Shown here: positions 32,601 to 51,999 of the stretch, piece after piece
How the letters are laid out: the number at the start of each line of letters is the position of its first letter
How positions within the stretch are numbered: position 1 is the first letter of the stretch
IMG/VR virus record: IMGVR_UViG_2546826724_000006
Location: 1 to 64,000 of that record
Direction: 5' to 3' (one strand)
Source of the DNA: a virus
Taxonomy: Duplodnaviria > Caudoviricetes
DNA: 64,000 nt
Notes under the pieces: generated by a model
What the model saw: the letters and a program-made list of their open reading frames with translations, nothing else
The model's database searches: none
Told to the model about the DNA's origin: nothing
Position numbers and translations under genes: made by a program

Positions 32601-33026
32601 ATGAACCTTCAGGAAGCACGTACTCAGTTTCTCGCCGACAAGGACGCTCTCGCTGAGAAGGGCGTTCACCTCAACGGCGTCGTGATGTATGCGACGCCCG
32701 AGATGAAGCGGGACAGCACGCTCGCGATGGACGCTCAGCCGGTTCTTCAGACCGCGCCGAGCGGCGGCATCCCGGCGTTGCTCACCACGACGATCGACCC
32801 GGACGTGATCCGCGTTCGCTTCTCCCCGACCAAGGCCACCGAAATCTTCGGTGAGCAGCAGAAGGGCGATTGGCGGCAGGACACGATCGCGTTCGGCGTG
32901 GTCGAGCAGACCGGCGAGACGTCGGTGTACGGTGACTACGCCAACAACGGCTCCGTCAACGTCAACATGAACTGGCCGCAGCGTCAGCTCTTCCGCTACC
33001 AGACCATTTCACAGGTAGTTCACTAA
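32601..33026 (+). CDS. Major capsid protein (DUF2184-type), 5' part, interrupted by the integrated element
   Basis: LAMDAQP...KGDW...YGDYANNG...NWPQRQ...YQTIS, then an element-derived stop. Confidence 0.88.
   Translation: MNLQEARTQFLADKDALAEKGVHLNGVVMYATPEMKRDSTLAMDAQPVLQTAPSGGIPALLTTTIDPDVIRVRFSPTKATEIFGEQQKGDWRQDTIAFGVVEQTGETSVYGDYANNGSVNVNMNWPQRQLFRYQTISQVVH
32997..33010 (+). repeat. attL core TACCAGACCATTTC
   Basis: 13/14 identity with 51304-51317. Confidence 0.9.
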
Positions 33027-33050
33027 TAATCCCTTTCGTATCAATACCTT

Positions 33051-33080
33051 AGGGCGCCTCTCATGGCGCCCTTTCCTTTG
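33051..33080 (+). terminator. Intrinsic terminator just inside attL
   Basis: AGGGCGCC-tctcat-GGCGCCCT followed by TTCCTTTG. Confidence 0.6.
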
Positions 33081-33196
33081 TCTACTGATTACCACCAGCA
33101 CATTATATATCAATGGGTTACAGCCGTTGACGGCTGCTACACATGCCATGACGCGCGCCATGGCCGCGCCACCGCAATCGCATCTCAGAGACTGCT

Positions 33197-33409
33197 ATGG
33201 ATCAGCTTCATGGTCGTGACGAAGGCGAGGTGCTGACCGGCGCCAAGGCCATCGCCAACAGGTTCGGGTTCACCCCTCGGCAGATCTACTATTGGGTAGG
33301 CCACGCTGGGTTCCCGGTTTTTCACATCGGAAAGATCATCTGTGCTCGGCCGGCCCACGTGCGTCGCTGGATCGCTGAGCAAGAGGCGGCAGCACGAAAG
33401 GCTGGCTGA
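33197..33409 (+). CDS. Excisionase/AlpA-like HTH protein (satellite)
   Basis: LTGAKAIANRFGFTPRQIYYW....FPVFHIGKIICAR; first gene inside attL. Confidence 0.75.
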   Translation: MDQLHGRDEGEVLTGAKAIANRFGFTPRQIYYWVGHAGFPVFHIGKIICARPAHVRRWIAEQEAAARKAG

Positions 33410-33410
33410 C

Positions 33411-33665
33411 ATGGCTTATCGGGAACGGCGTGAAGTCACGCACCATGAGGCTATGCGCCTCGGAGAGAATGCAGAGGTGCGGGTAGACGTTGAGACGGAG
33501 AGCACCTTCGACTTGGTGATTTTCCGGATTTGGTCCCTCGACCATCATCTCGGTTGGCTTCCGACGAGCAACACCATCCGCCTCAAGGCCGCGCAGTTGC
33601 CCGACTTCGTGCGGCTCGGCCTGCGGGCGCACCAATCCATCCAAGCCCGGAAGCCCCGGCCATGA
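33411..33665 (+). CDS. Putative PC4-like ssDNA-binding protein
   Basis: VRVDV...LVIFRIW....GWLPTSNTIRLKAAQLPDF pattern. Confidence 0.45.
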   Translation: MAYRERREVTHHEAMRLGENAEVRVDVETESTFDLVIFRIWSLDHHLGWLPTSNTIRLKAAQLPDFVRLGLRAHQSIQARKPRP

Positions 33666-34135
33666 GCGTGCGCTACACTCTAGGCGTGGACATCGGCGCG
33701 AGCGGCGCCCTGGCCTTCTACGCCGCCGCTGAGCCCGCCATCGTCACGGTAGACGACATGCCGATGGTCGCCGGCCGGGTGGACCCGCACGCGCTCGCCC
33801 GCCGGATCCGGCAGATGGCCCCTGCCTTCGCCGTCGTGGAGCAGCAGGGACCGCGCCCGACCGATGGGTGCAAGCAGTCCTTCGGGATCGGACACGCCTA
33901 TGCGGTGGTGACGACGGCGCTGGCCCTCTGCGACGTGCCAGTGCATCTCGTCACCTCTGGCACGTGGAAGAAGCATCACAAGATCTTCGGCGCGTCCGAT
34001 CCAAAGGAAGCGGGTCGCGCCCTGGCCCTCCGTCTCTGGCCGCAGTGCGCCGAGACCTTCGCGTTGAAGAAGCACGACGGCCGATCCGACGCGGCCCTTA
34101 TCGCCCGCTTCGGGGCTGAGACGATCCAACTCTGA
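33662..34135 (+). CDS. RuvC-like Holliday junction resolvase
   Basis: LGVDIGASGALA, AVVEQ, WKK, HDGRSDAALIA. Confidence 0.85.
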   Translation: MSVRYTLGVDIGASGALAFYAAAEPAIVTVDDMPMVAGRVDPHALARRIRQMAPAFAVVEQQGPRPTDGCKQSFGIGHAYAVVTTALALCDVPVHLVTSGTWKKHHKIFGASDPKEAGRALALRLWPQCAETFALKKHDGRSDAALIARFGAETIQL

Positions 34136-34244
34136 AATCTGAGATCGAGGCGGAAGGTCCCGTCTCGTTGCGAGCGCGCTGGGTGGTGATGAGGACCGCC
34201 GCCCGGCGCGCGAGCGCATGTCCGCAAACCTACGGAGACATCAC

Positions 34245-34694
34245 ATGGCACGACGCCAGACACGAGTGACGATCAAGGCTGAGCCGACGTTGGACGAAGA
34301 CGGCAGGGTGATCGCGCCGGCCCAGCCCGGCCGAGACGAGGGCAAGACCTACGTGTTGACGGAGATGTCCGCCAAGCAGGCCGAGAGCTGGGGTGGCCGG
34401 GCGTTGACGGCGCTCACGCACTCCGGGGCCGAGCTGCCGGACGAGATCATGACGGCAGGCATGGCAGGGTTCGCCATGATGGGGATGCAGGCCCTAGCGG
34501 GGATCAAGTTTGAGGAAATCGAGCCGCTGATGAACGAAATGTTCGAGTGCGTGCGGATCGCCCCCGACCCGAAGAACCCTGACTTGGTGCGTGACCTCGT
34601 TGAGGATGACATCGAGGAAGTCTGGACGCGCGTTAAGCTGCGGATCGCCGTGCTTGACCTTCACGTCCGCCCTTCCACGCCCGTCGCCCCCTAG
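34245..34694 (+). CDS. Satellite tail assembly chaperone; probable -1 frameshift extension to 34903
   Basis: Clear paralog of helper 60536-61021 (RDEGKTYVLTEMSA vs RDAGKTFLLTEMSA; LVEDDIEEV in both). Confidence 0.88.
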   Translation: MARRQTRVTIKAEPTLDEDGRVIAPAQPGRDEGKTYVLTEMSAKQAESWGGRALTALTHSGAELPDEIMTAGMAGFAMMGMQALAGIKFEEIEPLMNEMFECVRIAPDPKNPDLVRDLVEDDIEEVWTRVKLRIAVLDLHVRPSTPVAP

Positions 34695-34917
34695 ACATCG
34701 GTTCGGTTGGGGACGACGGGTTGCCGGCACGATGGCGGGAGTTTGAGAACGTCTCTCGCTCTATCGCCATCGTCATGACCGAGAAGTTCGCGACCATGGG
34801 CGAGCTGGATACCATCTACGGCTCGCAGGACTTGGCCGATATGGTCGAGATCATCAGCATCAACGCGCACAACGCGCGGCTGCTACAGCCCAAACCGCGC
34901 TAGCTACAGGCCCCCAC

Positions 34918-35382
34918 ATGTTCGTGGACTTCACCCATGCCGGGCGCGCTGCGCTCGACAATGCGATCCCTCATGCGTCGGCGCACCTCGTGCCGATGCT
35001 GAAGGCCGTTCGGGATCACGGGATGGCGTTCGTCATCGCCGCGCAGTCTCGGCGCGGGTTTGCGATCCCGGAGACCGGCCCGGCCGTCGTCATCATCGGC
35101 GACGACATGGCCCGGTCCCTTGGACCGCCTGGCTTCCACCTCAAATCCGTTCGGCGGCTTCTCGGCCGGGCGAAGGTCGTCGCCGTGATGGCGGGCGCCC
35201 CGGTGGAGACGATGTACGCCCGCATGACGCGTGACGCGGTGGAGCGCCGCGCCATCGTCGTGCTGATCGAGACCACGACCGCCCATGAGGAGGAGTGGAG
35301 CGCCTACGCGGAGGACGTGAACCCCGACGCCGACCTTCACCTTGTGTCGCCGACCGTGGCGAATTTGGGGGCGCCGGCATGA
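34918..35382 (+). CDS. Hypothetical protein
   Basis: IIGDD....GPPGF; VLIETT...EEEW. Confidence 0.6.
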   Translation: MFVDFTHAGRAALDNAIPHASAHLVPMLKAVRDHGMAFVIAAQSRRGFAIPETGPAVVIIGDDMARSLGPPGFHLKSVRRLLGRAKVVAVMAGAPVETMYARMTRDAVERRAIVVLIETTTAHEEEWSAYAEDVNPDADLHLVSPTVANLGAPA

Positions 35383-35639
35383 AGGATACCGCCCCCTTCG
35401 GCACCGTCGAGACCGCGTGCGACTTCCTCGCCGAGATGGCGGCCGGCGTGATCGCGCACGCCTCCGTCATGCAGAGCTACGCTGAGGCCCGGTACTATCC
35501 CGGCTTGGACTACGCCACTCGGCACACCGTCGCGTTCCTGCGCGCGATGGAAGCCGCGCACGCCGAGGTGGAGCGCTCGCGCGCCGTCGTGGCCTACCGC
35601 AAAGGCGCCGAGGCTATCGGGCCGGGGCAGGGTGTCTGA
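35379..35639 (+). CDS. Hypothetical protein
   Basis: Coupled to the rep gene (TGATG). Confidence 0.5.
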   Translation: MKDTAPFGTVETACDFLAEMAAGVIAHASVMQSYAEARYYPGLDYATRHTVAFLRAMEAAHAEVERSRAVVAYRKGAEAIGPGQGV

Positions 35640-36889
35640 TGCGGGAGCGCCTAGACGATCTGCCGCCGCTCGGCGAGCCGGACGAAGACGGCCGGTGGAT
35701 CCCGCCTGAGGAAGAGGCCCCGCGCGCCACGCCTTTGCTGCGAGCCACGCCCTACGTCTACCGCCCGCCGGCCGAGATCCCGATCCGGGAGTGGGTGTAC
35801 GGCAAGCATCTGATCCGCAGGTTCTTGAGCACCACCGTGGCCCCCGGCGCTGTCGGGAAGTCGAGCCTCGTTCTGGTCGAGGCCATCGCCATGGTGACGG
35901 GCCGCCCCTTGCTCGGGATCCAAGTCCCGCATCGGCTCCGGGTTTGGGTCGCGAACCTTGAGGACCCGCTTGAGGAGCTAGAGCGCCGCGTCGCTGCGAT
36001 CTGTCTCCACTACGGCATTGACCCGCGCGAGTTGGAAGGACGCCTGTTCCTCGACAGCGGGCGCACGGCCGAGATCATCATCGCCCGCCGCGAGCGCGAC
36101 GGCGTGAAGGTGGCAGAGCCCCTTATCGCTGCCATCGTGCAGACACTGCGGGAAAACCGGATCGATCACCTGACGGTCGACCCGTTCGTCTCGTCTCACC
36201 GCGTGACGGAGAACGCCAACGATGAGATCGACATCGTGGCGAAGGCTTGGAACCGCGTCGCCGAGACGGCCGGCGTGTCGATCGAACTCGTCCACCACGT
36301 CCGCAAAGGGCAGGGCGGGGCAGGGGAGTTCACGGTAGAGGACGGCCGCGGTGCCGGTGCCCTACTCGCCGCCGCTCGCTCGGCCCGCGTGCTCAACCCC
36401 ATGACCAAGGACGAGGCCGCCAGGGCCGGGTTGCCGTCGCATCGGGGCTACTTCCGGACGGACAACGGCAAGGCCAATCTCGCGCCGCCGCCCGACCGCT
36501 CGGAATGGTTTCATCTCACCTCCGTCTCACTCGGCAACGGGCCGGCTGGGCTCGTGGATGCCAGCGACCACGTAGCCGTCGTGGAACCCTGGACATGGCC
36601 GGATGCCTTCGACGGGATCAGCCTCAACGATCTGATGACGGCTCAAACCGCCGTAGCCGAGGGCGGTCCGTGGCGTGCCAGCCCGCAGTCGCCGGCATGG
36701 GTCGGCAGGCCGATAGCCCGCGCCTTGAGGATGGACCCCGACGATAAGGGAGACCGCCAGCGCGTCAGCCGCTTGCTCAAGACGTGGATGGAGACCGGCA
36801 TGTTCGTGACGGTCGAAGCACAGGACGAGGCCCGTAAAGTCCGGCAGTTCGTGGAGGTAGGAACCCGCGCCAGTGCGACACCGGACTGA
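35639..36889 (+). CDS. RepA-like AAA (SF4-type) helicase / replication protein
   Basis: APGAVGKSS Walker A, NLED, TVDPF, LVHHVRKG, DGRGAGAL, GKANLAP. Confidence 0.85.
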   Translation: MRERLDDLPPLGEPDEDGRWIPPEEEAPRATPLLRATPYVYRPPAEIPIREWVYGKHLIRRFLSTTVAPGAVGKSSLVLVEAIAMVTGRPLLGIQVPHRLRVWVANLEDPLEELERRVAAICLHYGIDPRELEGRLFLDSGRTAEIIIARRERDGVKVAEPLIAAIVQTLRENRIDHLTVDPFVSSHRVTENANDEIDIVAKAWNRVAETAGVSIELVHHVRKGQGGAGEFTVEDGRGAGALLAAARSARVLNPMTKDEAARAGLPSHRGYFRTDNGKANLAPPPDRSEWFHLTSVSLGNGPAGLVDASDHVAVVEPWTWPDAFDGISLNDLMTAQTAVAEGGPWRASPQSPAWVGRPIARALRMDPDDKGDRQRVSRLLKTWMETGMFVTVEAQDEARKVRQFVEVGTRASATPD

Positions 36890-36899
36890 GGGGCCGGAT

Positions 36900-37255: not shown

Positions 37256-37295
37256 CTTTACAACTTGCTCAACGAACGTAGAGCATTTCGTAAAG
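37256..37295. promoter_or_regulatory. Imperfect palindrome; candidate res/operator site of the serine recombinase
   Basis: CTTTACaactTGCTCaACG-aa-CGTaGAGCAtttcGTAAAG directly upstream of the gene. Confidence 0.55.
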
Positions 37296-37303
37296 GCACA
37301 GCG

Positions 37304-37978
37304 ATGGCGACCGGATCCTTCGTCACCTACGCGCGAGTTTCGACGGCGAAGCAGGGCCGCTCCGGTCTCGGCCTCGACGCTCAGCGCGCCGCTGTCACGG
37401 CCTATCTGAACGGCGGCAAGTGGAGCGTCGTCGGCGAGTTCGTGGAGATCGAGAGCGGCAAGCGCGCCGACCGTCCCGAACTGGCGAAGGCCATCGCCGC
37501 TTGCCGGCTGTACGGCGCCAAGCTCGTTGTTGCGAAGCTCGACCGGCTCAGCCGCGATCCCGGCTTCCTGCGGGACCTTGAGCGCAGCGGTATCGACTTC
37601 GTTGCGGCCGACATGCCCGACGCCAACCGGCTGACGGTAGGCGTGATGGCCCTTGTCGCCGAGCAAGAGCGGGAAGCCATCTCGGCCCGCACCAAGGCTG
37701 CCCTACAGGCTGCCAAGGCCCGCGGGACCAAGCTCGGGGGCTTCCGGGGCTACACCCTCACCGAAGCCGACCACGCCGCCGCCAAGGCTGGCAGGGAGGC
37801 TCGCACACAGGTCCAGGCCGACCGCATCGGGGCGACCGTGGCCGAGATCAGGGCCGCCGGCATCACGTCGGCCAATGGCATCGCCAAGGCTCTCAACGAA
37901 CGCGGCATCCCGACTGCTAAGGGCGGTCAGTGGCAGGCCGTACAGGTCCAGCGGGTGCTGTCCCGCCTGGAAGCATAG
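37304..37978 (+). CDS. Serine recombinase (resolvase family)
   Basis: YARVST..Q, ESGK...RPEL, AKLDRLSR, EREAISARTK. Confidence 0.92.
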   Translation: MATGSFVTYARVSTAKQGRSGLGLDAQRAAVTAYLNGGKWSVVGEFVEIESGKRADRPELAKAIAACRLYGAKLVVAKLDRLSRDPGFLRDLERSGIDFVAADMPDANRLTVGVMALVAEQEREAISARTKAALQAAKARGTKLGGFRGYTLTEADHAAAKAGREARTQVQADRIGATVAEIRAAGITSANGIAKALNERGIPTAKGGQWQAVQVQRVLSRLEA

Positions 37979-38018
37979 GGGCATCCATTCCGGGTGCCTC
38001 GACACAGAGGACACCCAC

Positions 38019-38264: not shown

Positions 38265-38269
38265 GCGCC

Positions 38270-38691: not shown

Positions 38692-39063
38692 ATGCCCAAA
38701 GCACGCGCGGCCGTCTCGCGGTCGGCCATGACGAACGGCCGCCGCCTTCACCTGATCCGCCCGTCCGGTTGGACTGCCGAGGGGCGGCGCTTTCAAGACC
38801 TCGTTGAGGCCCTGACGGAGGAACGCGGCGGCGCTGCGGCCCTCGATGTCGCCCGGCAGGAAGCGATCCGCATGTACGCGCTGCTCAGCGTCGAGCGGAG
38901 CCGGATTGAGGTGGACATGGCCTCCGGCAGGCCCGTGGACGCGGAGCACTACGGGCGACTGTGCGACCGCGCCGACCGTCAGTATCGCCGCATGGGGCCG
39001 CCCCTGCCGCGCACCAAGCAATCGCTTAGGGATCAACTATTGCAAAGAGCAGGTAAGGCATGA
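38692..39063 (+). CDS. terS: Satellite terminase small subunit
   Basis: Helical 123-aa protein coupled (ATGA) to the second terL. Confidence 0.65.
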   Translation: MPKARAAVSRSAMTNGRRLHLIRPSGWTAEGRRFQDLVEALTEERGGAAALDVARQEAIRMYALLSVERSRIEVDMASGRPVDAEHYGRLCDRADRQYRRMGPPLPRTKQSLRDQLLQRAGKA

Positions 39064-40595
39064 AAATCATATGCTCCATGCGAGAAGCATTGGAAGATGA
39101 TAGACTACTTGGCACTGTTCTTCCAGGGGAAAGCTGGCGGAACTGGCGTATTCTTCTGATCGCCAGCCGGGGCGAGCCGCTGACGGCAGAGGAACGGGAG
39201 GTGTTCACCCGCCTGACGACCCGCGAGCGCGAGCCGGAGGAAGCGTGCGACGAAGTTTGGTCCGTAGTCGGGCGCGGTGGCGGCAAGTCGGCGGCCATGA
39301 GCGCGGCGGCTGCGTACTATGCCGGGTGCGTGGACCATACCGGCAAGTTCAAGCCGGGGCAGCGACTGCGCATTCCGGTGATGGCGACGGCGAAAGAGAC
39401 GGCGGCCGAGTGCCTGAACTACCTCAAGGGCATCTTTACCGAGATCGAGTTCTTCGCCGAGCTTGTCGAGTATGAGATGAACGGCCGGAAGCGGAGTGAG
39501 CCCCGCATCACGGAAAGCAAGATCAGCCTCGTCAACTCGGTGGACATCCTCGTCACGGCGGCCAACTTCAAGACGGTGCGCGGCGCGACGCTGATCGCCG
39601 CCTTGTTCGATGAGCTGGCCTTCTGGGCGCTGGACGGGCAGGCCAATCCGGATCGAGAGATCGCCCGCGCGACACGCCCCGGTCTCGGCCGCTACGGCGA
39701 CGGCGTGTTGCTCGTCATGTCCAGCCCCTACGCCAAGAAGGGGCTCTTATTCGAGACGTACAAGAAGCATTTCCGGCCGGACGGCGATCCGCGCGTGCTC
39801 GTCGTCCAGGCGCCGACGCTGGAGATGAACAACAACCCGGATCTGCGCCGGAAGATTGAGCGCGAATATGCCGACGATCCCGAGTCGGCGCGGGCCGAGT
39901 ACGGCGCGGAGTTCCGGGAAGGCGTCTCGGACTTCGTGAGCCGTGAAGTCGTGGATCAGTGTACGGACTTCGGTGTCCGTCAGCGAGAACCTGACCCGAA
40001 CGTCCAGTACACGGCCTTTATCGATCCATCCGGCGGCACCGGCAAGGACAGCATGACGCTTGCTGTTGCGCATCGGGAGAAGGACGGCTCCGTTATTTTG
40101 GACCTCGTTGACGGAGTGAAGCCGCCGTACTCCCCCGATGCCGTCTGCCAGCAGTTCGCCGCGACGCTCAAGCCGTTCCGGATCTACGAAGTCACGGGCG
40201 ACAACTTCGCAGCCGAGTGGCCCAAAGAGCTAATCCGCAAGTACGGCATCACCTACGTTCAGTGTCCGAAACCGAAGGCGGCGCTGTACTCCGAGTTTTT
40301 GCCGGCCCTGAACAGCGGCAAGGTGCGCTTGCTCGAACACGACAAGATGCGCAACGAATTGCTGAACCTTGAGCGCCGGACCAATTTCGGCGGAAAAGAC
40401 AGCATTGACCATCCGGCAAACGGTCACGACGATTACATTAATGCCGTTGCCGGTGTAGTATGGGCGGAGAGCAATGCATCCAAGCCCATCGTCATCTCGC
40501 CAGAGCTTCGAGAACTGGCGAAGACGCCGAACAGACGCACGCAGAGAGACGCCTTCAACTTCGTCATGGGCTACGGCCCCGGCCGACGCTTCTAA
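39060..40595 (+). CDS. terL: Satellite terminase large subunit
   Basis: VGRGGGKS, LFDELAF, MSSPY, FIDPSGG, HDDYINAVAG. Confidence 0.9.
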   Translation: MKIICSMREALEDDRLLGTVLPGESWRNWRILLIASRGEPLTAEEREVFTRLTTREREPEEACDEVWSVVGRGGGKSAAMSAAAAYYAGCVDHTGKFKPGQRLRIPVMATAKETAAECLNYLKGIFTEIEFFAELVEYEMNGRKRSEPRITESKISLVNSVDILVTAANFKTVRGATLIAALFDELAFWALDGQANPDREIARATRPGLGRYGDGVLLVMSSPYAKKGLLFETYKKHFRPDGDPRVLVVQAPTLEMNNNPDLRRKIEREYADDPESARAEYGAEFREGVSDFVSREVVDQCTDFGVRQREPDPNVQYTAFIDPSGGTGKDSMTLAVAHREKDGSVILDLVDGVKPPYSPDAVCQQFAATLKPFRIYEVTGDNFAAEWPKELIRKYGITYVQCPKPKAALYSEFLPALNSGKVRLLEHDKMRNELLNLERRTNFGGKDSIDHPANGHDDYINAVAGVVWAESNASKPIVISPELRELAKTPNRRTQRDAFNFVMGYGPGRRF

Positions 40596-40607: not shown

Positions 40608-41087
40608 ATGGCTTTGATGAAACGCACCCGCGCTACCGCGCTAGACCGCGACCCCCTGGACCGCGATAAGCTCGACAACTTGATGCTGTTCCTGAAGGAC
40701 CGGCTCAGCCCCGACGACTTCGCTAAGTTCACCGACCTGATTGACGATCTGCAGGACGATGCAGAGGCTGCGAACCCCTCTCGTGAGATGGCGACGGACG
40801 CCCTGCCGGCTTCGATCCGCCGCGCGGTCCGCCGCGAGATGCGGAGTGCCCGCCTCCGCCTCTCGGGCGGCTCGTCCCTCGCGCAGGACGCGGCGCGCAT
40901 CAGCTCGTTCGAAGAGCGCTATCCGGGCGCCGCGAGGATTAAGGGCGACCCGATGCCGGGCGCTATGTACACGGCCCGCCGACCGGATCCGGTTCTGTCG
41001 CAGCCTGAGGCCCGCGCAGCGAGGGAAGCGAGCGCGGCTCGCATCTCTGCAATGATGGGCGGCCGCATCATCAAGGACGCTGAGTGA
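40608..41087 (+). CDS. Satellite scaffold-like protein
   Basis: AxD motifs; LSPDD and SFEERYPGAARI match helper scaffold LSPED and SFDERFGTSRI. Confidence 0.65.
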   Translation: MALMKRTRATALDRDPLDRDKLDNLMLFLKDRLSPDDFAKFTDLIDDLQDDAEAANPSREMATDALPASIRRAVRREMRSARLRLSGGSSLAQDAARISSFEERYPGAARIKGDPMPGAMYTARRPDPVLSQPEARAAREASAARISAMMGGRIIKDAE

Positions 41088-41857
41088 TGGTCGGGCCCCG
41101 CCGGCAGGAAGCCGTCATCTCGGCTTCCGAGCCTTCGCTTCGTTCTCCGGAGCGCCAAGCCCTCGCCGAAGCCATCGCCAAGGCTGAGGAGCACAACAAG
41201 GGTCTCGCCGCGTGCCGCGCCGCGATCCAGGCCGCCGAGGGGATGGAGGCGACCGCGGAGGCCGCCCTCCGAGATGCCCAAGCCGAAGTCGAACAGGCTA
41301 AAGCAAGCCGTGCCGCTGAGATCACGGCTGCGGCTGCGGCCGGGCAGTCCGTCCCGTCGAGCGATCGTCAGCGTCTTGCCCGCCAGCGCGAAGTGGAGGC
41401 GCAGGACGAACTAGAGGCCGTGCGATCCTCGCTTGAGGCCGTGCGGGCGCCGCTAAGTGACTGGGAATACTGGGCGCAAAATTGCGCTGAGAAGGTCCGC
41501 AAGGCTGCGGCCGATGTTGCTACTGCTCAGGTCCCGGAAGCGATTGCGGTAGCGCTCAGGGCGATCAAGAACGCCGAGGTTTGCGTCCGCTCGGCCTATG
41601 CGGCGCATAGCGCGGTAACCGATGTCGCGGGCGGCCAGGATCAGGCCATGTCGGCGCGCATCAACGCTCTGCTCAACTTCGTGCCGGGCACCTGGGACTA
41701 TCGCAATCCCAGCCGCGGGGACGGTCCCGAGTGGAACAGGGCTGTCGCAGCCTTGCTGACGGATCCCGACGCGCCCCTGCCGGCCGTGCGCGAGGTAGCG
41801 GACATGGTTCCCGGCGAGCCCGGTCCCGGCATCACCGGCCCGCGGCGCGTCGCCTGA
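41084..41857 (+). CDS. Coiled-coil hypothetical protein
   Basis: Ala/Glu-rich helices; C-terminal W...L.TDPDAPLP. Confidence 0.65.
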   Translation: MMVGPRRQEAVISASEPSLRSPERQALAEAIAKAEEHNKGLAACRAAIQAAEGMEATAEAALRDAQAEVEQAKASRAAEITAAAAAGQSVPSSDRQRLARQREVEAQDELEAVRSSLEAVRAPLSDWEYWAQNCAEKVRKAAADVATAQVPEAIAVALRAIKNAEVCVRSAYAAHSAVTDVAGGQDQAMSARINALLNFVPGTWDYRNPSRGDGPEWNRAVAALLTDPDAPLPAVREVADMVPGEPGPGITGPRRVA

Positions 41858-42771: not shown

Positions 42772-43623
42772 ATGGCCTTCGCCGCGAAGTTCATCAACGT
42801 CACCATAGAGCTGCAAAATCCTGGCTCGCAAGGCGGGGTCAACAAAGCGACCATCAAGAACCATCGTGTCGCCGTTGCCGTCGAACAGAACGGCAGTCCG
42901 GACATGGGCAAGGCCACGTGCAGTATCTATGGCCTTAGCCTCTCGCTAATGAACCAATTAACGCAGCTTCCATTCATGGCAGAGGCTGTCGGCAACAACA
43001 AAATCATGATTGAGGCCGGCGAGGGCAACGGCGTCCCGAAAAAGGTCTACTCGGGGACGATCTTCGCGGCGTTCGCCGACATTCGCGCTCCTATTGGCGC
43101 CTTGCGGGTGGATGCGCTCGGCGGATACTACAATGCCGTCGCTCCGGCGACGCCGACAAGCAAAGAGGGGGACGCGGATGTCGCAACCCTCCTCGGCCAG
43201 ATCGCCAAGCAAGGGCAACTCACCCTCGAAAATAACAACGTGTCGTGCGTCGTGAGAGATCCTTATTTGCCAGGCTCTAATCGCCAGCAAATCAAGCATC
43301 TCGCCGAGTCGGCCGGCATCAATTGGCTAATTGAAGACGATAAGCTCGCGATTTGGCCGAAGAACGGTAGCCGGAATGGCGACGCCGTGAAGGTAAGCAA
43401 GCTGACCGGTATGGTTGGCTATCCGCGCTACACGGCTAGCGGGATTGAAGTCGTCGCGACGTGGAACCCGAACCTGCGATATGGCGGAAGTATTCAGGTC
43501 GAAAGCGAATTAACCCCGGCCTGCGGTACGTGGTACATCGTGAACATTGCGCATGAACTTGAAAGTGAGACGCCGAATGGAAGGTGGTTCACGATCCTTA
43601 CCTGCACGAGATTGAAGACTTAG
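42772..43623 (+). CDS. Baseplate hub protein, satellite
   Basis: IYGLSLSLMNQL, IEAG, TGMVGYP, NPNL..GG.I.VES, HELESETPNGRWFT. Confidence 0.82.
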   Translation: MAFAAKFINVTIELQNPGSQGGVNKATIKNHRVAVAVEQNGSPDMGKATCSIYGLSLSLMNQLTQLPFMAEAVGNNKIMIEAGEGNGVPKKVYSGTIFAAFADIRAPIGALRVDALGGYYNAVAPATPTSKEGDADVATLLGQIAKQGQLTLENNNVSCVVRDPYLPGSNRQQIKHLAESAGINWLIEDDKLAIWPKNGSRNGDAVKVSKLTGMVGYPRYTASGIEVVATWNPNLRYGGSIQVESELTPACGTWYIVNIAHELESETPNGRWFTILTCTRLKT

Positions 43624-43632: not shown

Positions 43633-45872
43633 ATGGCTACGGTTCTGGATACTCTTGTCGTACAACTTGGCCTCGACCCTAAGGCTTTCGTCAAGGGTAC
43701 ACAGCAGACCACGGGTGCGCTCGCCAAGACCCGTGAGGGGGCGCTCAAGGAAGGCAAGCAGATCGAGCGCTCGCTGGACAACGCCAGCGAGTCCGTCGAG
43801 CGCCTTGCCCGCAACGCCTTGAAACTGGCAGCGATTTTCACCGGCGGGCGAGCCCTCGGAACATTCATAACCGATATCGGCCGGGCGGACGCCGCTATGG
43901 GCCGGATGGCTGACCGCCTGGGCGTAGCGCCCGAACGGGTCGCGGCCTTCGACAACGCCATCAAGCGGATGGGAGGCTCGGCCGGCGAGGGCGCCGCCGC
44001 CTTCCAGCGCATGTCGGATACCGTCAACGAATTGCGATCGACAGGAAATTCCTCGGCCCTGCCGGCGCTCGCCAAGCTACAGGCCATGTCCGGCCAGCAA
44101 ATCCGGTTGAACGGCGAGACGGAGGAGTCGCTAGGCGACCTCGCCGAAGCCGCCAAGCGGGCCTCTGAGCGCGTCGGCGCCGCGCGGGCCAGCTTTGAGC
44201 TTCGGAGCGCCGGCTATAGCGATGCCGCGATCAATCAGCTTCTCAAGGGCCGTGCCGAGCTACAGAAGGCCCTGGCGCAGTCACAGCGATCCGGCCTCGT
44301 GTCGAAGGCCGACGCCGACGCCGCCCGCGCGCCCTCGGGGCTCAGTATGAGGATCTGTCCGACAAGGTGGCGGACTTCGGCCGGCGGATCAGCACGGCGC
44401 TGACGCCGATCCTCACCGACCTGATGAAGCGGTTCGGCGACTGGATCGACAAGAACAAAGAATGGCTCGCGCAGGACATTGCGACGGAGGTCGGCAAGTT
44501 CGCGACCGAGCTGCGCAAGATCCCCTGGGATGACGTAGCCAAGGGGATCAAGGAGTTCGTCAAGGGCGCGAACGACGGCGCGCAGGCGGTCGGCGGCTGG
44601 ACCCGTGTCGCGGAGATTTTCTTCGGGCTCTGGATCGGCAGTAAGGTGGTGGGGGTTCTCGCCAGCATCGCCGCGATCCGGAACGCCCTCGTCATCGGCG
44701 ACACGTCGTTGCTCGCGGCCATGGCGCGCGTCGGCATTCCGGTCGCAATCGGCGCCGTCGCGATGGGCCACGGTTTCCAGACGCCAGAACAGGCCGCGAA
44801 AGACCCGGATCAGGCTCTGCTTCAGCGCGAGGGTATCGACCGCCGGGCGCGGGTGCGCGGGTGGCTCGGAGACAGGTACGATGACGTGCGGCGGTTTGGG
44901 CGCCGTCTACTCGGCGGCGGTAGCGCGGAGGCCGGCGAGGACGACCGTCACTCCGATGGCATTCGTCGGCGCGGTCGCCGGGCAGCTCAGAATTATGATG
45001 GGAGCGGTGCGACGCCTCCCCGGGGTGATGGTAGCGGCAATGCCCGTGCGGCTCGCACTGCTGACATGATGCGGTATGCGATGGATCAGCTAAAGCGCGA
45101 GGGTGTGCCGGAAGCGCATCTGCGGCAGTCGGCGGCGCACCTCGTCGGACAAGCGACGATGGAGTCGGGACTAGACCCGAACAAGACCCATGATCCCGAT
45201 GCCAGTGGCCGTCCGACCGGCTATGGCATCTATGGCGCGCGACTGGTTCGGCGCGACCGGATGCTGCGCTGGCTGGAAAAGAACGGCTACGCGAAGAACT
45301 CTGCGGAAGGCCAGATGCGGTACATGTCGCATGAAGCCATGAACGATAAGACCTACGCAAGAACCCGCAGCATTCTGATGGGGGGCGGATCCGGTAATAT
45401 CGACGCGGACACCGACACCATCACGAAAAACTTTGAGAGCCCGAAGTTCGTCAACCGTCGTTCCGGTGCCGTTCGGAATGCCCTGCGGACTGGGGCCTCG
45501 CCAGAGCCGCAGCGCGAGAAGGACATTAAGACGATCCAAGACACGGTTTCCGGCGCCCGCAAGCCTGAAGTTCTGGCGGATCCCAAGGACGAACGCCGCA
45601 AGCCGATGGCCTCGCTATTCTACGGCGACACCCCGCCTGGCGTGCAGGCGGGTGCGCGATCCGCAGTCGCGCAACAGCAGAGTGCCCTGGCGGATCGAGC
45701 TGCCGTCACTCAGAACGACAACCGGAGCACAAGCACCTCCACGCAGGAAGCTCACTTCCACGGCGACATGGTGTTTCAGAACGCCGGGGACAGTCGCGAG
45801 ATCGCCAGCAACCTGCGGGCGCGCTTGAAGGAGCCGCAGTTCGTCTCGGCGGCAAATACCGGACAGGCGTAG
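43633..45872 (+). pseudogene. Satellite tape measure protein with tail-lysozyme domain, frameshifted at ~44326-44332
   Basis: Both ORF halves align with helper TMP 61162-63588; removing one GC from CGCGCGC gives a 745-aa ORF. Confidence 0.85.
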
Positions 45873-45876
45873 GCGA

Positions 45877-46182
45877 CTAGCGGGCTCCGAACGTGTCGGG
45901 GAAGCTTTTAAGCACTCTAGCGCAGAGGGCTTTGCGGCCTTCCTCGGCCTCGCGGGCGTCAAAGACCTTGATCCCCGCAGATAGCCCAGCCTCAAGGCTC
46001 GCTTTGGTCATCTGAGTGGCACACTCTCGGGCTTGCTGAATGTAGGCTTCGGGGTAGTGCTCGAACCCGCACTGGAACTGAGCGCGGCTGAGGAAGCCAT
46101 GCGTCTTAAGAAATTTCGGGCAGTCGGCGGCCTGCGCCGAGACGGACGTGGCGATGATCGCGGCGGCGAGGGTGTAGCGCAT
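45877..46182 (-). CDS. Secreted/periplasmic protein convergent on the satellite TMP gene
   Basis: Signal peptide MRYTLAAAIIATSVSAQA; four Cys. Confidence 0.7.
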   Translation of the reverse strand: MRYTLAAAIIATSVSAQAADCPKFLKTHGFLSRAQFQCGFEHYPEAYIQQARECATQMTKASLEAGLSAGIKVFDAREAEEGRKALCARVLKSFPDTFGAR

Positions 46183-46417
46183 CCGGGCAACATATACCCC
46201 CGGTTGAGACTGTCGAGATGACGCGCAGCACGAAACCCCCTGCGCCTTGCCGGGCGAGGGGTGTTCGTGTCATGCTGTGGATGGAGCTTCGCAACTCCCG
46301 AGATGGACCCTTGCCGGGGTTGGCATCTCAGTCCGTGAAAGGCGTGCGCTACGGCTTGCCGGCCGAAGTGTCGCCTCTAAAAACCGCGCTCACACCGTGA
46401 GCCGCGACCGGCTCACT

Positions 46418-46504
46418 ATGCCGGGAGTGCCACGGTTATACAAGAGCCTTCGGGTGAAGGCCGTGGCGCACGTTCTCACGGGCGTGTTGCGAAGCTCCTG
46501 GCGC
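46418..46504 (+). ncRNA. C4/CI-like antisense RNA
   Basis: Cloverleaf-like stems; unpaired TCAC and TTGCGAA complementary to flanking CCGTGA and TTCGCAA sites. Confidence 0.7.
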
Positions 46505-46578
46505 CAGCGCCGACCGCTGGCATGGGTGGACCCCTTCGCAAGGGAAAGCCCCCGGCCTTCGCAAGCCGGTTCTAGACC

Positions 46579-47253
46579 GTGAGCAACGAACTTATGTCAT
46601 TCCACGACCACCGCACGCCGCGCATCGCGGCTGTGCTTCCGACTGCCAAGCGGCAGTACGGACCCGTCACGCTCGCCATCCGAGCGATGCGCGCCGCCTA
46701 CGGCATCAATGCCAAGGCCCCGGCCCGTCGAGCCGGCCCCGTCACCGAAGCCATCCGCACCATGCGGGCCGCCGTGCCGGACTTCGATGCCAACCCCGAC
46801 CTCATTGCCCTGCGCCGGGCGCTCGCTAATCGGATCGAGACGGACATTGCCGCGCTCGACATGCTGGGCGGGGATCCGGACCTTGAGTCGGATTTTGTCA
46901 TGGAGGAGTGCGCCGCCAACGGCACGCTCTACCTGCGCGGCAGATCCTCGGACGACGAGCCGAGCTTGTGCGGCGCAGGTACTCACGAAGGCGGCGTGCT
47001 CGGCGGTCTGACGCCATCGCAGGGCGGTGACGACCGTGAGGACGAGAACGAGCACGGCGGCGACGTTCAGGACGAACCGCACGATCCCGAGGAGGACGGC
47101 GACGTTCATGAGATCGGCACGGCGGTCGCGGGTTTCGACGGGACCAACTATCTGCGCACAAGCCTGAACCGTCGCGTCAGCGTCATTCCGCGCGGCGTCG
47201 TGATCGTTGGACCGGACGGCGCGGGTTACACCGTGTCGCGGGTGGCGCGATGA
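46579..47253 (+). CDS. Hypothetical protein (immunity operon)
   Basis: IAALDMLGGDPDLE followed by an acidic tract. Confidence 0.6.
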   Translation: MSNELMSFHDHRTPRIAAVLPTAKRQYGPVTLAIRAMRAAYGINAKAPARRAGPVTEAIRTMRAAVPDFDANPDLIALRRALANRIETDIAALDMLGGDPDLESDFVMEECAANGTLYLRGRSSDDEPSLCGAGTHEGGVLGGLTPSQGGDDREDENEHGGDVQDEPHDPEEDGDVHEIGTAVAGFDGTNYLRTSLNRRVSVIPRGVVIVGPDGAGYTVSRVAR

Positions 47254-47765: not shown

Positions 47766-48064
47766 TCTATTCCTTCCTCGCCGTCTGGCAGATCCGGCTT
47801 GCCCGGTTCGACATCGCCCGATCCGAACGCCTTACCGACGATGCGCAGGAAGCCTTCGCCAAGGCCGGCGAGCGAGCACGTCTCGCAGACCGTCTCATGG
47901 TTCGGGCGGGCCTGCCCGTCATCTTCGGACGCTGATACCCGGCCCGGCCGCTCGCGCGGTCGGAATTGTCGCCAAGTTGGCGGCATATGCCCCGAGCCCG
48001 GCCGGGCCTCACGACAGCCCTCGGCGCAATTCCGTGCCGGGGGCATCTTCGTGAGGATGCCACC

Positions 48065-48835
48065 ATGACACAGACCATGCCGGTCCTGGCGGTCCACGAC
48101 GGACGCCCGATGGCCGATAGCCGCGACGTAGCAGCTACGTTCGGGAAAGAGCACAAGCACGTGTTGGAAGCCTATCGGAACTGCCATTGCAGCGCCGGCT
48201 TCCGGGAGACGAATTTTCGACCGTTCAAAATCAAGGACTTAACCGGCGAGAGCACCAGCCACGTCCTGATGACGAAGAATGGCTTTGCCTTCCTCGTGCT
48301 CGGCTTCACGGGCGCAGCGGCGGCGGTGTTCAAGGAGGCATACGTTGAGCGCTTCGACGCGATGGAAGCGGAGCTGCGTCGCCAGTCTGGTCCGGTTGTG
48401 CCTCAGAGCCTGCCAGAAGCTCTCAGGCTGGCGGCGGACCTCGCTGAGCAGGTAGCCACGCAAAAGGCCGAGATCGCCGTCCTGGCGCCCCGTAGCGAGG
48501 CCCTGGCGGTCATCTCTGACGCGGACGGCTCGCTGTGCGTGACCGACGCTGCAAAGGCCCTACAGATGCCGCCGGGCGAGCTGTGGGCCTACCTGCTCAG
48601 CGCGCAGTGGATCTACCGCCGGGAGAAGGACGGGCACCCCGTCGCCTACCAGTCCAAGCTGACGGCCGGCTACCTTGAGCACAAGGTGGTCCCGATCCCG
48701 ACCGCCCCCGGTAAGACCTGGGCTCGGCAACAGGTCCGCATCACGCCGAAGGGCCTAACCGCCCTCGCGCAGCGGATCCCCCTCGACCGGCCGGGCGGAT
48801 TGTTCGGCCGCCTCGCCGCGCCCGCCAGCGCCTAA
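48065..48835 (+). CDS. Rha-family regulator fused to an antirepressor (ANT/KilAC) domain
   Basis: DSRDVAATFGKEHKHVL, MTKNGFAFLVLGFTG, PQSLPEALRLAADLAE, QVRITPKG. Confidence 0.88.
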   Translation: MTQTMPVLAVHDGRPMADSRDVAATFGKEHKHVLEAYRNCHCSAGFRETNFRPFKIKDLTGESTSHVLMTKNGFAFLVLGFTGAAAAVFKEAYVERFDAMEAELRRQSGPVVPQSLPEALRLAADLAEQVATQKAEIAVLAPRSEALAVISDADGSLCVTDAAKALQMPPGELWAYLLSAQWIYRREKDGHPVAYQSKLTAGYLEHKVVPIPTAPGKTWARQQVRITPKGLTALAQRIPLDRPGGLFGRLAAPASA

Positions 48836-48885
48836 CCGCAACAGCCCGGCCGTGGCTGGCGGCCGGGCGCACTAGGAGATCAGAC

Positions 48886-50022
48886 ATGGCAAGCGTCCGA
48901 CTGAGGCGGTGCAAGGGCAAGAAGGGGGCGATGGTTGAGGTTTGGGTCGTGGAGTGGACCGACGCCAAGCGCAAGCGGCATCGCCATACCCCAAGGCCCA
49001 ACACCAAGGCCGCCGCCGACAAACTCGCGCGTAAGCTCGAAAAGGATCCGCACCTTTCGAATAGATTTCTACCGATCACCGTCAAAGACGTTTGCATGAA
49101 TTGGCTTCGCCATATTGAGCAACGTTATGAGGACGGGGACAACATGTCTATGGAAAAACTCCGGCAAAATTGGAGCATCGTTTTCAAAAACATCATTCCA
49201 TATCTGGGCGATCTTAAGGCGGCCGATCTGTCGCCAATCCATGTGCAAGAATTTTCCGACATGATGAGAGACAAAAGACGTGGAGCCAAGTCTCCAATCG
49301 TAATCAGGAACACAATCAGCGTACTTGGTCGCGCCCTTACCGAAGCGCAGCGGCTTGAGATTATCCCTCGCAACGTCGTTAAGGACGTGCCGCCACATAT
49401 GCCGAAGATACCGAAGGCTTCGATCGAAGTTCCGGACCGATCTGACCTGCGCCAGTTGCTAAACAATGCGGACGGCGCAATCGGCCTTATGGTCCGCATA
49501 GCTATCTTCACGGGCTTGAGAGTGGGAGAAATCCGCGCGCTGATGTGGCCACAAATTGATTTTGAGAAAAACTTGATCCACGTCAAACATTCTGCGACGC
49601 CTAGAGGAAAGATCAAAACTCCGAAAACAAAGGCTGGAAATCGAACTGTCCCAATACCGCCGATGCTGACCTCTGAACTCCGTAAATGGAAGATTGCCAA
49701 TATCTCAAATCGAATGGGCTTTCTGTTCCCCAACTCAAGATGCCCAGCAGAATTGGCGATAAGCCAAACACAGGTTCAGAATTTGTGGCGAAGGCTTAAA
49801 GTTAAGAGCGAGGTTAAGCCAATTCATTTCCATGCCTTGCGGCACGCAGCGGCCAGCTTGTTCATCGAAACAGGTCTCTCTCCGCAGAGACTAAAGGTCC
49901 TTATGGGGCACGCAAATATCAACATGACTTTCGATACCTACGGCTATCTCTTCCCGGACGACGGTGCGGCACACATTGCTAGTACGCAAGTGGAGACCAC
50001 TCTACTGAACGGGGTGCTGTGA
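48886..50022 (+). CDS. Tyrosine integrase A (satellite; AT-richer)
   Basis: TGLRVGEI, PKTKAG, FHALRH, MGH, TYGY. Confidence 0.9.
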   Translation: MASVRLRRCKGKKGAMVEVWVVEWTDAKRKRHRHTPRPNTKAAADKLARKLEKDPHLSNRFLPITVKDVCMNWLRHIEQRYEDGDNMSMEKLRQNWSIVFKNIIPYLGDLKAADLSPIHVQEFSDMMRDKRRGAKSPIVIRNTISVLGRALTEAQRLEIIPRNVVKDVPPHMPKIPKASIEVPDRSDLRQLLNNADGAIGLMVRIAIFTGLRVGEIRALMWPQIDFEKNLIHVKHSATPRGKIKTPKTKAGNRTVPIPPMLTSELRKWKIANISNRMGFLFPNSRCPAELAISQTQVQNLWRRLKVKSEVKPIHFHALRHAAASLFIETGLSPQRLKVLMGHANINMTFDTYGYLFPDDGAAHIASTQVETTLLNGVL

Positions 50023-50023
50023 G

Positions 50024-51238
50024 ATGGCTAGCGTTCGCAAAAGAACCTGGACTGGGCCGGACGGGAAACCCTGTGAGACCTGGACCGTGGAGTTCACCGA
50101 CTCTGATGGTCGCCGTCGCCGTGAGACACCTAAGAGCGGTCTCAAGAAGGATGCCGAGGCAATCCGCAAGCGGATTGAGCGGGAGATGGACGACGGGACG
50201 TTCGTGGCCGCCTCGCAAACCGTGACGGTGGCCGCGCTTTGTGACCGCTATCGCGAGCATGTGGAGGCCAAGCTCCGTGACGGTCGAATTGGTCCCGCTC
50301 GTATCATCCAGCTCGACTACCATTTCAAATCCATCAAGAAACATCTCGGATCCGTTCTGGCGACCGATTTGACCCCTGACATGATTGACCGGGCCTATGT
50401 AGCCCTTGTGAAAGACGACGGATTGGTGCCGACAACCGCTAAGCATCGGCTCTATACCCTGAAAATGATGCAGGACTTTGCCGTCAAGAAGGGGCTTATG
50501 GTGAAGCTCCCGGCCGATGCCGCGCTCAAGGAATTGCGGGGCATCGAACGGAAGCCCATCCGAACCTTCAGTCGGGACGACGCGGTATTGCTCATAAAGA
50601 CCGCCTCGGTCCGCCGACCAGGAGGACGGCCGTACAATGCGGCTCTACTGGAATGCCTTGTCAACCTTGCCGCGTTCTGCGGGCTTCGGTACGGGGAGAT
50701 TATTGGTCTCACGCGCGCGAACGTGGATTTGACGGGGCGCATGATCCATGTGCGTCAGAGCTTCTGTCGCTATACGGTGAAACTGAAGGGACCAAAGACA
50801 GCGGCGGGCGTGCGGGATGTCCCGATGCCTATGCATGTCGTCGCTCTTGTGCGGCGTTGGATTGAAACCTACTCTGTTCCGAACAGCCTCGACCTCGTGT
50901 TCACCATTGCTGAAGGGAAGTGGCTGGAGCAATCCAATTTCCGCAACAACATGTGGCTCCCGTTGCTGAAGCGCGCAGGGCTTGAGCACAGCGATGCGCT
51001 GCACTTCCACAGCCTTCGGCACTTCGCGGCGTCGTGGATGATCGAGTGCGGCATGCCGCTCACCGATGTGGCGCGGATCATGGGGCACAGCAAATTCGAC
51101 ATGACGTTGCAGGTTTACGCGCACCCAGTGCATTCGCCGGCTCATGCGCGCGAAGCGATTGATCGCATGGCGGATCGGTTCCTAGCGCTGCCGAAGACCA
51201 TCGAACTGCCGGTAGCGGCGCCACAGATTGAAGCCTAG
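50024..51238 (+). CDS. Tyrosine integrase B (satellite; next to attR)
   Basis: CGLRYGEI, PKTAAG, FHSLRH, MGH, VYAH. Confidence 0.92.
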   Translation: MASVRKRTWTGPDGKPCETWTVEFTDSDGRRRRETPKSGLKKDAEAIRKRIEREMDDGTFVAASQTVTVAALCDRYREHVEAKLRDGRIGPARIIQLDYHFKSIKKHLGSVLATDLTPDMIDRAYVALVKDDGLVPTTAKHRLYTLKMMQDFAVKKGLMVKLPADAALKELRGIERKPIRTFSRDDAVLLIKTASVRRPGGRPYNAALLECLVNLAAFCGLRYGEIIGLTRANVDLTGRMIHVRQSFCRYTVKLKGPKTAAGVRDVPMPMHVVALVRRWIETYSVPNSLDLVFTIAEGKWLEQSNFRNNMWLPLLKRAGLEHSDALHFHSLRHFAASWMIECGMPLTDVARIMGHSKFDMTLQVYAHPVHSPAHAREAIDRMADRFLALPKTIELPVAAPQIEA

Positions 51239-51303
51239 GCGCGCCATGAGCGCGCCATGGCAAAAAATGCCACGCTAAATCAGAGGGTTAGTGGGTGTAA
51301 ATT

Positions 51304-51317
51304 TACCAGACCATCTC
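51304..51317 (+). repeat. attR core TACCAGACCATCTC
   Basis: Direct repeat of 32997-33010. Confidence 0.9.
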
Positions 51318-51999
51318 TGAGTACGGGGAGCTTGAGGTTGAGCGTGCCGGTCTCGCCGGCATCAACCTGGTCGCCGAAAAGGACAACGCTGCCGCGACCG
51401 TGATGGGTCGTCTTGAGAACACCGTGTCGTTCTACGGCGTGGCTGGGCTCCAGAATTACGGCTTCACTAACGACCCGTCGCTGTATGCCGTTCTGACCCC
51501 GGCGACGAAGGCTGCCGGCGGCACGACTTGGTTCACCACGGGCGGCGCCCCGAACGCCACGGCCAACGAGGTCTACAACGACTTCCTGTCCATGTTCGCG
51601 CAGCTCGTGAACCAGACTGCCGGCCTCGTCGAGGCTACCGATCGCTTGGTTTGGGCGCTCCCGCCGCAGCAGGCCGTCGCGCTGGGCTTCATCAACCAGT
51701 ACAACGTGAAGGTTCGTGAAGCCATTCAGGCCGAGTTCCCGAGCCTGCGCATCGTGACCGCCGTCCAGTACGGCAAGCAGAGCGCGCAGAGCCCGATGGG
51801 CCTGTCGGCCGGCAACATGACCCAGCTCTTCGCCGAGACGATTGACGGTCAGGAGACGGGCTTCAACGCCTACGCCGAGAAGATGCGCTCGCACAACGTC
51901 GTCACCGACCTGTCGAGCTACAAGAAGAAGTGGTCGGGCGCGACCTGGGGTGCCGTGATCAAGGTCCCCTATGCCATCGTCGGCATGGTGGGCATCTGA
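51304..51999 (+). CDS. Major capsid protein, 3' part
   Basis: Open frame from the repeat (YQTISEYGELEVERAG...FYGVAGLQNYGFTNDP...GMVGI); in frame with the 5' part. Confidence 0.88.
   Translation, partial: YQTISEYGELEVERAGLAGINLVAEKDNAAATVMGRLENTVSFYGVAGLQNYGFTNDPSLYAVLTPATKAAGGTTWFTTGGAPNATANEVYNDFLSMFAQLVNQTAGLVEATDRLVWALPPQQAVALGFINQYNVKVREAIQAEFPSLRIVTAVQYGKQSAQSPMGLSAGNMTQLFAETIDGQETGFNAYAEKMRSHNVVTDLSSYKKKWSGATWGAVIKVPYAIVGMVGI

Follow-up and report, generated by a model that had tools for sequence, protein, structure and literature searches.

A satellite inserted in the major capsid gene of its helper prophage, and its relatives at prophage late genes in Alphaproteobacteria

The DNA analysed here (the window) is the first 64 kb of the 87,028-bp virus record IMGVR_UViG_2546826724_000006, and it carries an 18,307-bp element inside the major capsid gene of a myovirus prophage. 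The insertion is real, site-specific and located in the capsid gene of the element's own helper. We interpret the element as a helper-embedded satellite whose family, found in Alphaproteobacteria, is independent of the helper-embedded phage-inducible chromosomal islands (HE-PICIs) of enterobacteria, with excision timed by the helper's late transcript and with its own packaging, and we place the probability of this interpretation at roughly 0.72. It is supported by the split gene and its empty homologues, the tropism of the integrase clade, a terminator at the left attachment (att) site (attL), arm repeats, tail and scaffold genes matched to those of the helper, and the presence in the helper of a CI-type S24 repressor and a NusG paralogue.

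A capsid gene split by an 18.3-kb element

The two parts of the capsid gene lie on the + strand. The 5′ part reaches the att core at 32601–33010 (42–51% identity to the N-halves of eight intact homologues), and its frame continues to 33026, where it ends in YQTISQVVH and a stop codon. The 3′ part resumes as YQTISEYGELE at 51304 and runs to 51999 (PF09950, DUF2184, E 2e-6; 68–73% identity to intact Methylobacterium-genus homologues). The attL core (32997–33010, + strand) and the attR core (51304–51317, + strand) form a 14-bp direct repeat identical at 13 of 14 positions (11 exact, one mismatch, then two) and lie 18,307 bp apart, which is the element size; this confirms the split at YQTIS, the spacing and the repeat reported in a preliminary description of this DNA. 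The 11-mer of the core occurs exactly twice in the record. When a crossover at the cores is computed, a capsid frame of 363 amino acids (aa) and a stop codon are restored, with zero internal stops.

Elsewhere the gene is whole. The halves are joined and uninterrupted in all eight homologues compared, and no interruption was found at the insertion point in 85 of 86 homologous loci, the lone exception being cut by a contig end; this survey took in the best 80 of 363 viral-contig matches, and some of its loci are one prophage seen twice. Logan contigs of sequencing run X1 run across both junctions at a flat depth of 316–323, which speaks against assembly chimeras; runs with small word shares were left aside. 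X1 is possibly the source run, so that this is a separate assembly and not independent biology. At window 45623–45713, X1 also contains small alternative contigs, one of which carries a single A>G difference at low depth.

Two element proteins are letter-identical on a 5.3-Mb contig, and the record is therefore most likely a provirus cut from a chromosome; to judge from named homologues, the host is probably Methylobacterium. Without the insert, the helper measures 68,721 bp. Its myovirus gene set comprises an integrase, a CI-type repressor with an S24 domain, a NusG paralogue, terminase, a DUF1073 portal, MuF, a DUF2213 protease-scaffold, cement, capsid, a DUF3383 sheath, tube, tape measure, baseplate and a lysis region. 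Apart from the insert the prophage looks whole and its late genes appear complete. The data thus support what was first proposed for this locus, namely that a capsid-less satellite sits site-specifically in its helper's capsid gene and that capsid protein cannot be made from the split copy before the element excises.

An integrase clade next to prophage late genes

The main tyrosine integrase is encoded at 50024–51238 (+ strand; PF00589). Direct viral-contig searches with this protein or with the element's large terminase (TerL) gave no confirmed relative, and an alignment query was needed; GenBank phages held no close integrase (best 27.5%), and E. coli genomes searched by DNA held none close. 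An alignment of 30 homologues, in which R222, H329, R332, H355 and Y365 are invariant, was used as the query and returned the best 80 genome loci and 79 viral loci (best 80). In a tree of 129 rows, the main integrase falls within a 60-row clade with a Shimodaira–Hasegawa-like likelihood-ratio support (SH-aLRT) of 97, whose named members come from Alphaproteobacteria or unclassified proteobacterial metagenome-assembled genomes.

The set of loci based on these 60 rows, less seven duplicates and three loci with <200 nt of flank, provided 57 evaluable clade loci. At least 41 of the 57 directly abut a prophage late-gene frame, mostly one beginning mid-profile (29 assigned by PHROGs, 11 more by BLAST and 1 by att mapping); several are near-copies, so there are fewer independent events than loci. 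The genes hit include two terminase types, two portal types, a Clp protease, several capsid types and a minor tail protein. The original proposal that the element targets a conserved gene of its helper is upheld here, whereas the relatives of its integrase hit many late genes and not only the capsid gene. A genus-wide search found the integrase in 11 of 146 Methylobacterium genomes. Among nine further loci in the genus, four are followed by a P22-type coat, capsid E, gpA or portal gene, and one is truncated.

Two multiple insertions were observed in the clade. In G007 (L189–L190), two clade integrases occupy two positions of one capsid gene, and in G072:C2:786717-808914 (L330, L334, L335) three lie within ~22 kb, two of them before terminase and portal fragments.

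A first automatic mapping of att sites recovered mostly arm repeats or chance matches, with a clear restored late-gene frame only for L029/L124 and L125, and the mapping was redone by homology. Of 29 pairs of excisionase (xis) and integrase (int) genes, 13 could be mapped with both gene halves and an in-frame core of 7–14 bp, 14 had no shared homologue and two had both halves without a firm core; L029 and G004 add to the mapped set. The mapped elements span 9.5–21.3 kb, and all are co-oriented with the target gene.

These elements share an end-to-end anatomy. In the 13 mapped by homology, xis lies ~180–280 nt from attL and int ends 3–76 nt before attR. A terminator-like hairpin is present just inside attL, 46–64 nt from the core, in 15 of 16 mapped elements; among controls it occurs in 42 of 192 segments from the interior and in three of 16 attR ends. 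Tandem 11-bp arm repeats matching at ≥8/11 occur on the left in 14 of the 16 elements and on the right in 12, as found with fixed search ranges and a 120-nt control that understates chance for the longer left range. The window element has the full set: a hairpin and T-run resembling an intrinsic terminator (33051–33080), putative integrase arm sites on the left (33154–33175; 9/11 match, reached by 1.1% of 3200 control segments) and on the right (51239–51260; 10/11), all on the + strand, with xis at attL and int at attR. Over the whole element terminators are at chance level (11 found, 13.7 expected); the attL terminator is thus supported by its conserved position in relatives and not by the whole-element scan. 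Sigma-70-like promoters were likewise unremarkable (three found against 3.2 expected, none outstanding), and a repeat scan of the element yielded only chance-like pairs.

Gene content of the element and its relatives

From attL to attR, the principal genes follow one another on the + strand. The first encodes an excisionase-like helix-turn-helix protein (33197–33409; phrog_66, E 0.002; phrog_18541, E 2e-12), followed by a RuvC-like Holliday junction resolvase (33662–34135; phrog_1770, E 1e-20), a tail assembly chaperone with a downstream partner open reading frame (ORF) (34218–34903, the partner at 34721–34903; phrog_1932, E 8e-38; 58% and 47% identity to the helper pair), an AAA_25 replication protein of helicase/primase type (35639–36889; PF13481, E 1e-35; phrog_906) and a serine resolvase (37265–37978; PF00239, E 2e-28). 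Then come a putative small terminase (TerS-like; 38692–39063), the satellite's own TerL, distinct from that of the helper (39060–40595; phrog_2, E 9e-21), a scaffold-like protein without a protease domain (40608–41087), a long helical hairpin protein (41084–41857), a baseplate spike-type protein (42079–42768), a baseplate hub (42772–43623; PF22759, E 1e-18; 45% identity to the helper hub) and a tape measure protein with a lysozyme domain (43633–45872; phrog_9570; PF18013). The series closes with a Rha/ANT regulator of the Bro network (47966–48835; PF09669, PF03374), an accessory tyrosine integrase (48886–50022; GC 0.52; 27% identity to the main one) and the main integrase. In run X19, a contig of a related element lacks, by arithmetic, about 1,138 nt at the position of the accessory integrase.

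The genes named for the insert in the preliminary description (two tyrosine integrases, an xis-like gene, the AAA_25 rep, TerL, a scaffold-like gene, hub and spike) are all present, and its statement that capsid, portal, tube, sheath and fibre genes are missing agrees with our searches, in which these and baseplate-J had no match in the element at E<0.01. It had passed over the chaperone pair, tape measure, RuvC, serine resolvase and attL terminator.

Several of these genes bear on packaging. The small-terminase candidate keeps its position before TerL in all 10 TerL regions fetched from other genomes, and ESM gave a lead to Terminase_4 clusters with a score of only 0.89. The scaffold-like protein bears the C-terminal motif of the helper scaffold: over a stretch of 30 aa, its homologue P0124 shares 80% identity with the C-terminus of helper DUF2213 (E 2e-12), and with a profile of the helper-type scaffold region the 40608 ORF ranks right after the scaffold itself among the 547 ORFs of the record (E 0.0025). 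The C-terminal RIIK of this protein was considered as a CpmB motif; it is not kept in homologues and was treated as chance. For the hairpin protein at 41084, Psu/Sid likeness is a weak lead, from an ESM cluster in which 79% are PF07455 Psu (score 0.95). The identity was not confirmed: Pfam on 64 homologues and a PDB sequence search gave none, Foldseek with the models (pLDDT 74 and 91) gave none at E≤0.001, and VIA reached a best Z of 9.9 to generic hairpins or coiled coils.

The tail genes resemble those of the helper. The 42079 product is 64% identical to a helper gene (record 66531–67229) and has no family match; we take it to be a spike from its gene position. The N-terminal part of the tape measure protein is 45–50% identical to that of the helper, and the proteins are 745 aa (allowing for a two-letter discrepancy) and 808 aa long, respectively. 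In the window the tape measure gene appears frameshifted. Contigs of runs X1 and X2 lack two letters at 44326 and give one 745-aa frame, and the reading as a pseudogene was rejected; the frame break is probably an assembly error.

Small reverse-strand genes with secreted-looking products lie 3′ of the tape measure gene in the element (45877–46182), in the helper (record 63599–64639) and also in G118; they were perhaps captured together with it. Upstream of the ORF at 46579, a conserved stretch (46218–46582) recurs in G002, G004, G005a and G006 and, by analogy with the immunity RNAs in PICI Bro zones, is possibly a region of regulatory RNA.

Gene content was compared in 18 elements, comprising the 16 mapped and two with approximate ends. 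An excisionase-like gene is present in all 18, which were selected for having it. A tape measure gene is carried by 10 of the 18 (the window element and all nine candidates tested), Rha/Bro by eight, an AAA_25 rep by four and this TerL by two. Five have an HK97-like protease and capsid pair and one more has a capsid gene; with six of 18 so equipped, the capsid-less state is not a family trait. Four elements of ~10 kb (L181, L125, L126, L022) combine a capsid with a tape measure gene, three of them also with the HK97-like protease; no portal or large terminase was evident among their long ORFs, for which no family search was made.

Relatives of the satellite TerL occur in 30 of 146 Methylobacterium-genus genomes. 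Among 10 high-scoring regions fetched, nine have a P4-type integrase and none the late-gene integrase; they measure 16–18 kb and end at tRNA-Leu, tRNA-His, tRNA-Ser or chromosomal genes. PICI-like Methylobacterium satellites with a P4-type integrase and their own TerS–TerL were seen at L207/L225–L226 (G118), L227 (G032), L231 (G030), L237 (G049) and L241 (G136), and some such satellites also carry scaffold, hub, neck-type and tape measure genes. In G118 the scaffold, hub and tape measure are of the same helper type, yet the element lies at a chromosomal site. At L234 (G027:C108), two related TerL-bearing elements stand head to head with divergent P4-type integrases. The occurrence of the TerL chassis at tRNA and chromosomal sites with P4-type integrases indicates that chassis and embedding cassette are exchanged separately: embedding would be the work of an integration cassette that can be swapped onto a chassis of PICI-like type.

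Further features were noted in the helper. Its MuF head protein (28792–30540; 582 aa) has a long C-terminal extension and lower GC; family searches found only MuF and one weak repeat match. MuF-type fusions with such an extension often bear an enzymatic domain. Small, mostly reverse-oriented, moron-like genes break up the head–tail region at 53878–56356, a tandem pair of mutually similar small ORFs resembling 51971–52498 lies 3′ of the capsid gene at 52519–53391, and an early gene (13121–14161) contains a long tandem peptide repeat.

Known satellites, proposed mechanism and alternatives

The element had been put forward as an undescribed satellite class. That claim has to be given up, since Tommasini, Mageeney and Williams (2023) described 11capE, which sits in capsid gene E (lambda-type) of its helper 50icd, showed its excision after induction and mapped 491 further HE-PICIs (PMC10111431). 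That survey reports phage surroundings only in Enterobacterales and deems more such elements likely (PMC10111431). The concept is thus already known; the novelty lies in an independent lineage from Alphaproteobacteria that has a layout of its own and often carries a tape measure gene.

The element shares with HE-PICIs co-oriented insertion in late genes of the helper, the major capsid gene among them; a short core without replacement sequence; an integrase clade repeatedly taking new late-gene sites; an arm-type motif doubled on either side; captured late genes; a Bro-network regulator; and the possibility of two satellites per helper. The differences begin with the hosts (Alphaproteobacteria instead of Enterobacterales) and the layout. 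The window element has xis at attL and int at attR, while HE-PICIs have int-alpA at attL, and its zones run xis, replication, late, Bro, int, against integration, Bro, replication, late. It also has a conserved attL terminator and a TerL of its own, its helper is a myovirus whose coat protein is of the DUF2184 type, and tape measure genes occur in 10 of the 18 elements compared.

The integrases belong to different lineages and are unrelated at subfamily level. The window and 11capE enzymes match at BLAST E 0.14 and at 20% identity in hhalign, and the latter groups with P4-type integrases (SH-aLRT 96, a value that carries a long-branch warning). In a quick tree, its placement within the late-gene clade was rejected (approximately unbiased test, p-AU 0.0036), the HE-PICI clade being represented in these trees by 11capE alone. 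The first gene of the element has no Phage_AlpA match, while the 11capE AlpA control matches at E 3e-15, and xis compared with AlpA reached at best E 0.18. The doubled TGTATTGC motif of HE-PICIs has 0 exact core copies in the element and 3 in the 11capE control, and a different 11-bp tandem lies at comparable positions. The element works like an HE-PICI and is not one: it has another integrase lineage, neither AlpA nor the motif, and int at the opposite end.

Other satellites resemble it in single respects. PLE11 of Vibrio cholerae equips helper tails with substitutes of its own for the chaperone, tape measure and hub, which work together with the helper's tube, sheath and fibres, and the 2026 paper states that a tape measure protein had not been reported from any satellite besides PLE (PMC12987554). 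The window element has the same kind of partial tail module (chaperone, tape measure, hub) and no capsid gene, a likeness of strategy and not of descent. PLEs, as described there, lie in the Vibrio host chromosome and parasitise the lytic phage ICP1 in trans, whereas here the helper is temperate and lies in cis, and its tail genes and those of the satellite are 45–64% identical. In SaPI1, a pathogenicity island of Staphylococcus aureus, CpmB competes with the helper scaffold through its C-terminal motif (PMC5644958). A short protein with that part of the helper scaffold in a capsid-less satellite is a parallel drawn from sequence alone, and the satellite-to-helper size ratio of 0.27 fits the quarter to third given for SaPIs; no CpmA-like partner was identified in the element.

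Capsid-forming PICIs have their own capsid, portal and head-completion genes, and neither capsid nor portal was matched in the window element. P4-like satellites have an Alpha primase-helicase, a Delta/Ogr activator and a P4 integrase; here the rep is AAA_25, the integrase is not P4-type and no Ogr_Delta match was found among the scanned ORFs. With Gram-negative PICIs and P4 the element shares the 10–20 kb size range, a primase/helicase-type rep, a Bro-network regulator, packaging genes and reliance on helper structural proteins, and siblings of its chassis have P4-type integrases at tRNA genes. It differs in lacking an AlpA match, in gene order and in having a large terminase and tail genes. 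The SatelliteFinder main text contains neither 'Alphaproteobacteria' nor 'tape measure', and its PICI model forbids tail genes (PMC10085698). A full-text literature search, with most subscription papers outside its reach, found no paper on an alphaproteobacterial helper-embedded family.

The mechanism we propose would run as follows. In the lysogen, the attL terminator would stop read-through from the helper late genes and keep xis silent. On induction the 87-kb composite would excise and replicate as one unit, amplifying the satellite passively; an order of composite excision, replication and satellite excision has precedent in the HE-PICI work (PMC10111431). The antiterminated late transcript of the helper would then read into xis, and the 18.3-kb circle would excise. 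The candidate antiterminator is the helper NusG paralogue encoded upstream of the late operon (23315–24010, + strand; NusG chains match at E 2e-12). Excision would reconnect the capsid gene with the downstream tail operon, and restored copies would supply coat and tail proteins, after which the satellite would replicate and package its own DNA with its own terminase into helper coat protein. Heads may be smaller through the scaffold mimic, the size ratio lying near T=4/T=9 or T=3/T=7 volumes, and tails would be chimeric and slightly shorter owing to the satellite tail proteins. The composite, whose length is 127% that of the helper, would probably not be packaged in one piece. The wider proposition, that this is a second, independent origin of helper-embedded satellites in which a portable cassette makes the helper's antiterminated late transcript the excision trigger and tape measure carriage is common, we regard as evenly balanced.

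Several observations weigh against this interpretation or limit its support. A leave-self-out BLAST comparison favours it, with a late-gene neighbour at 25 of 57 clade loci and at 0 of 70 distant integrases, but its control is biased by references taken from clade loci and by distant integrases mostly from other phyla. The frames in the PHROGs scan were picked by hand, 16 of the 57 clade loci had no late-gene assignment or were plainly something else, and so were four of the nine further Methylobacterium loci. Other capsid genes split at the same site, for which the preliminary description suggested looking, numbered 0 of the 86 homologous loci, so that the site has no second occupant there. 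The X1 contigs contain neither an excised circle (attP) nor an empty attB joint, although rare forms are lost from contigs and induction had presumably not taken place. In X19, the related element makes up a single contig of 17,990 bp and depth 70 whose ends fall near both att positions, with helper-like capsid pieces at depth 7–10; this is a weak hint of a free satellite form, from an element whose diverged att arms and integrase leave its target unassigned, and the depth of a contig does not give copy number. Redirection to small capsids and excision triggered by transcription are themselves argued from analogy.

The element could instead be an ordinary trans-acting PICI-like satellite, for which the late gene is a hitch-hiking site, the terminator only insulates and excision is unlinked to late transcription. 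Homologues at unrelated sites, which the earlier account had named as telling against embedding, do exist among relatives of the cargo: the same chassis stands at tRNA or chromosomal genes with P4-type integrases in 9/10 TerL regions, and the chromosomal G118 element carries genes of the same helper type. We nevertheless judge this unlikely, given that the order of terminator, arm sites and xis directly behind the helper late transcript is conserved across many targets and genera and that every mapped element is co-oriented with its target.

The insertion might also be a dead end, the prophage having been grounded by a disabling or decaying island that no longer excises. The missing excision product in X1 and the second integrase inserted before the main one would suit such a history, and 11capE itself yielded no virions that could be recovered (PMC10111431). 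Against it stand intact catalytic residues, an intact terminator and arm repeats at both ends, and unbroken frames for all the cargo. The single frameshift is absent from contigs of two runs and the helper late genes appear whole, and we judge a dead end improbable. An assembly chimera of two phages is scarcely credible: the window has one probable assembly error (the two letters at 44326), but the separate assembly spans both junctions and their att geometry is common to 15 mapped relatives.

The interpretation as a late-transcript-timed, helper-embedded satellite has consequences beyond this locus, and the family-level result (convergent late-gene tropism, the attL terminator and tape measure genes) is more interesting than the single insertion. 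It suggests at least two origins of helper late-gene targeting, each in a separate integrase lineage; the tropism is then probably selected and not a quirk of one clade, a question left open by the HE-PICI work (PMC10111431). The conserved layout of terminator followed by xis offers a directly testable timing mechanism. If the proposal is true, chimeric-tail piracy would be common rather than unique to PLE, and one cassette would have moved to new targets: terminase, portal and protease genes and capsid genes of several unrelated types. Such elements could escape satellite models in which tail genes are forbidden, as in the PICI model of SatelliteFinder. Many prophages of Alphaproteobacteria that are called defective because their terminase, portal or capsid gene is split may instead be whole helpers that carry a satellite.

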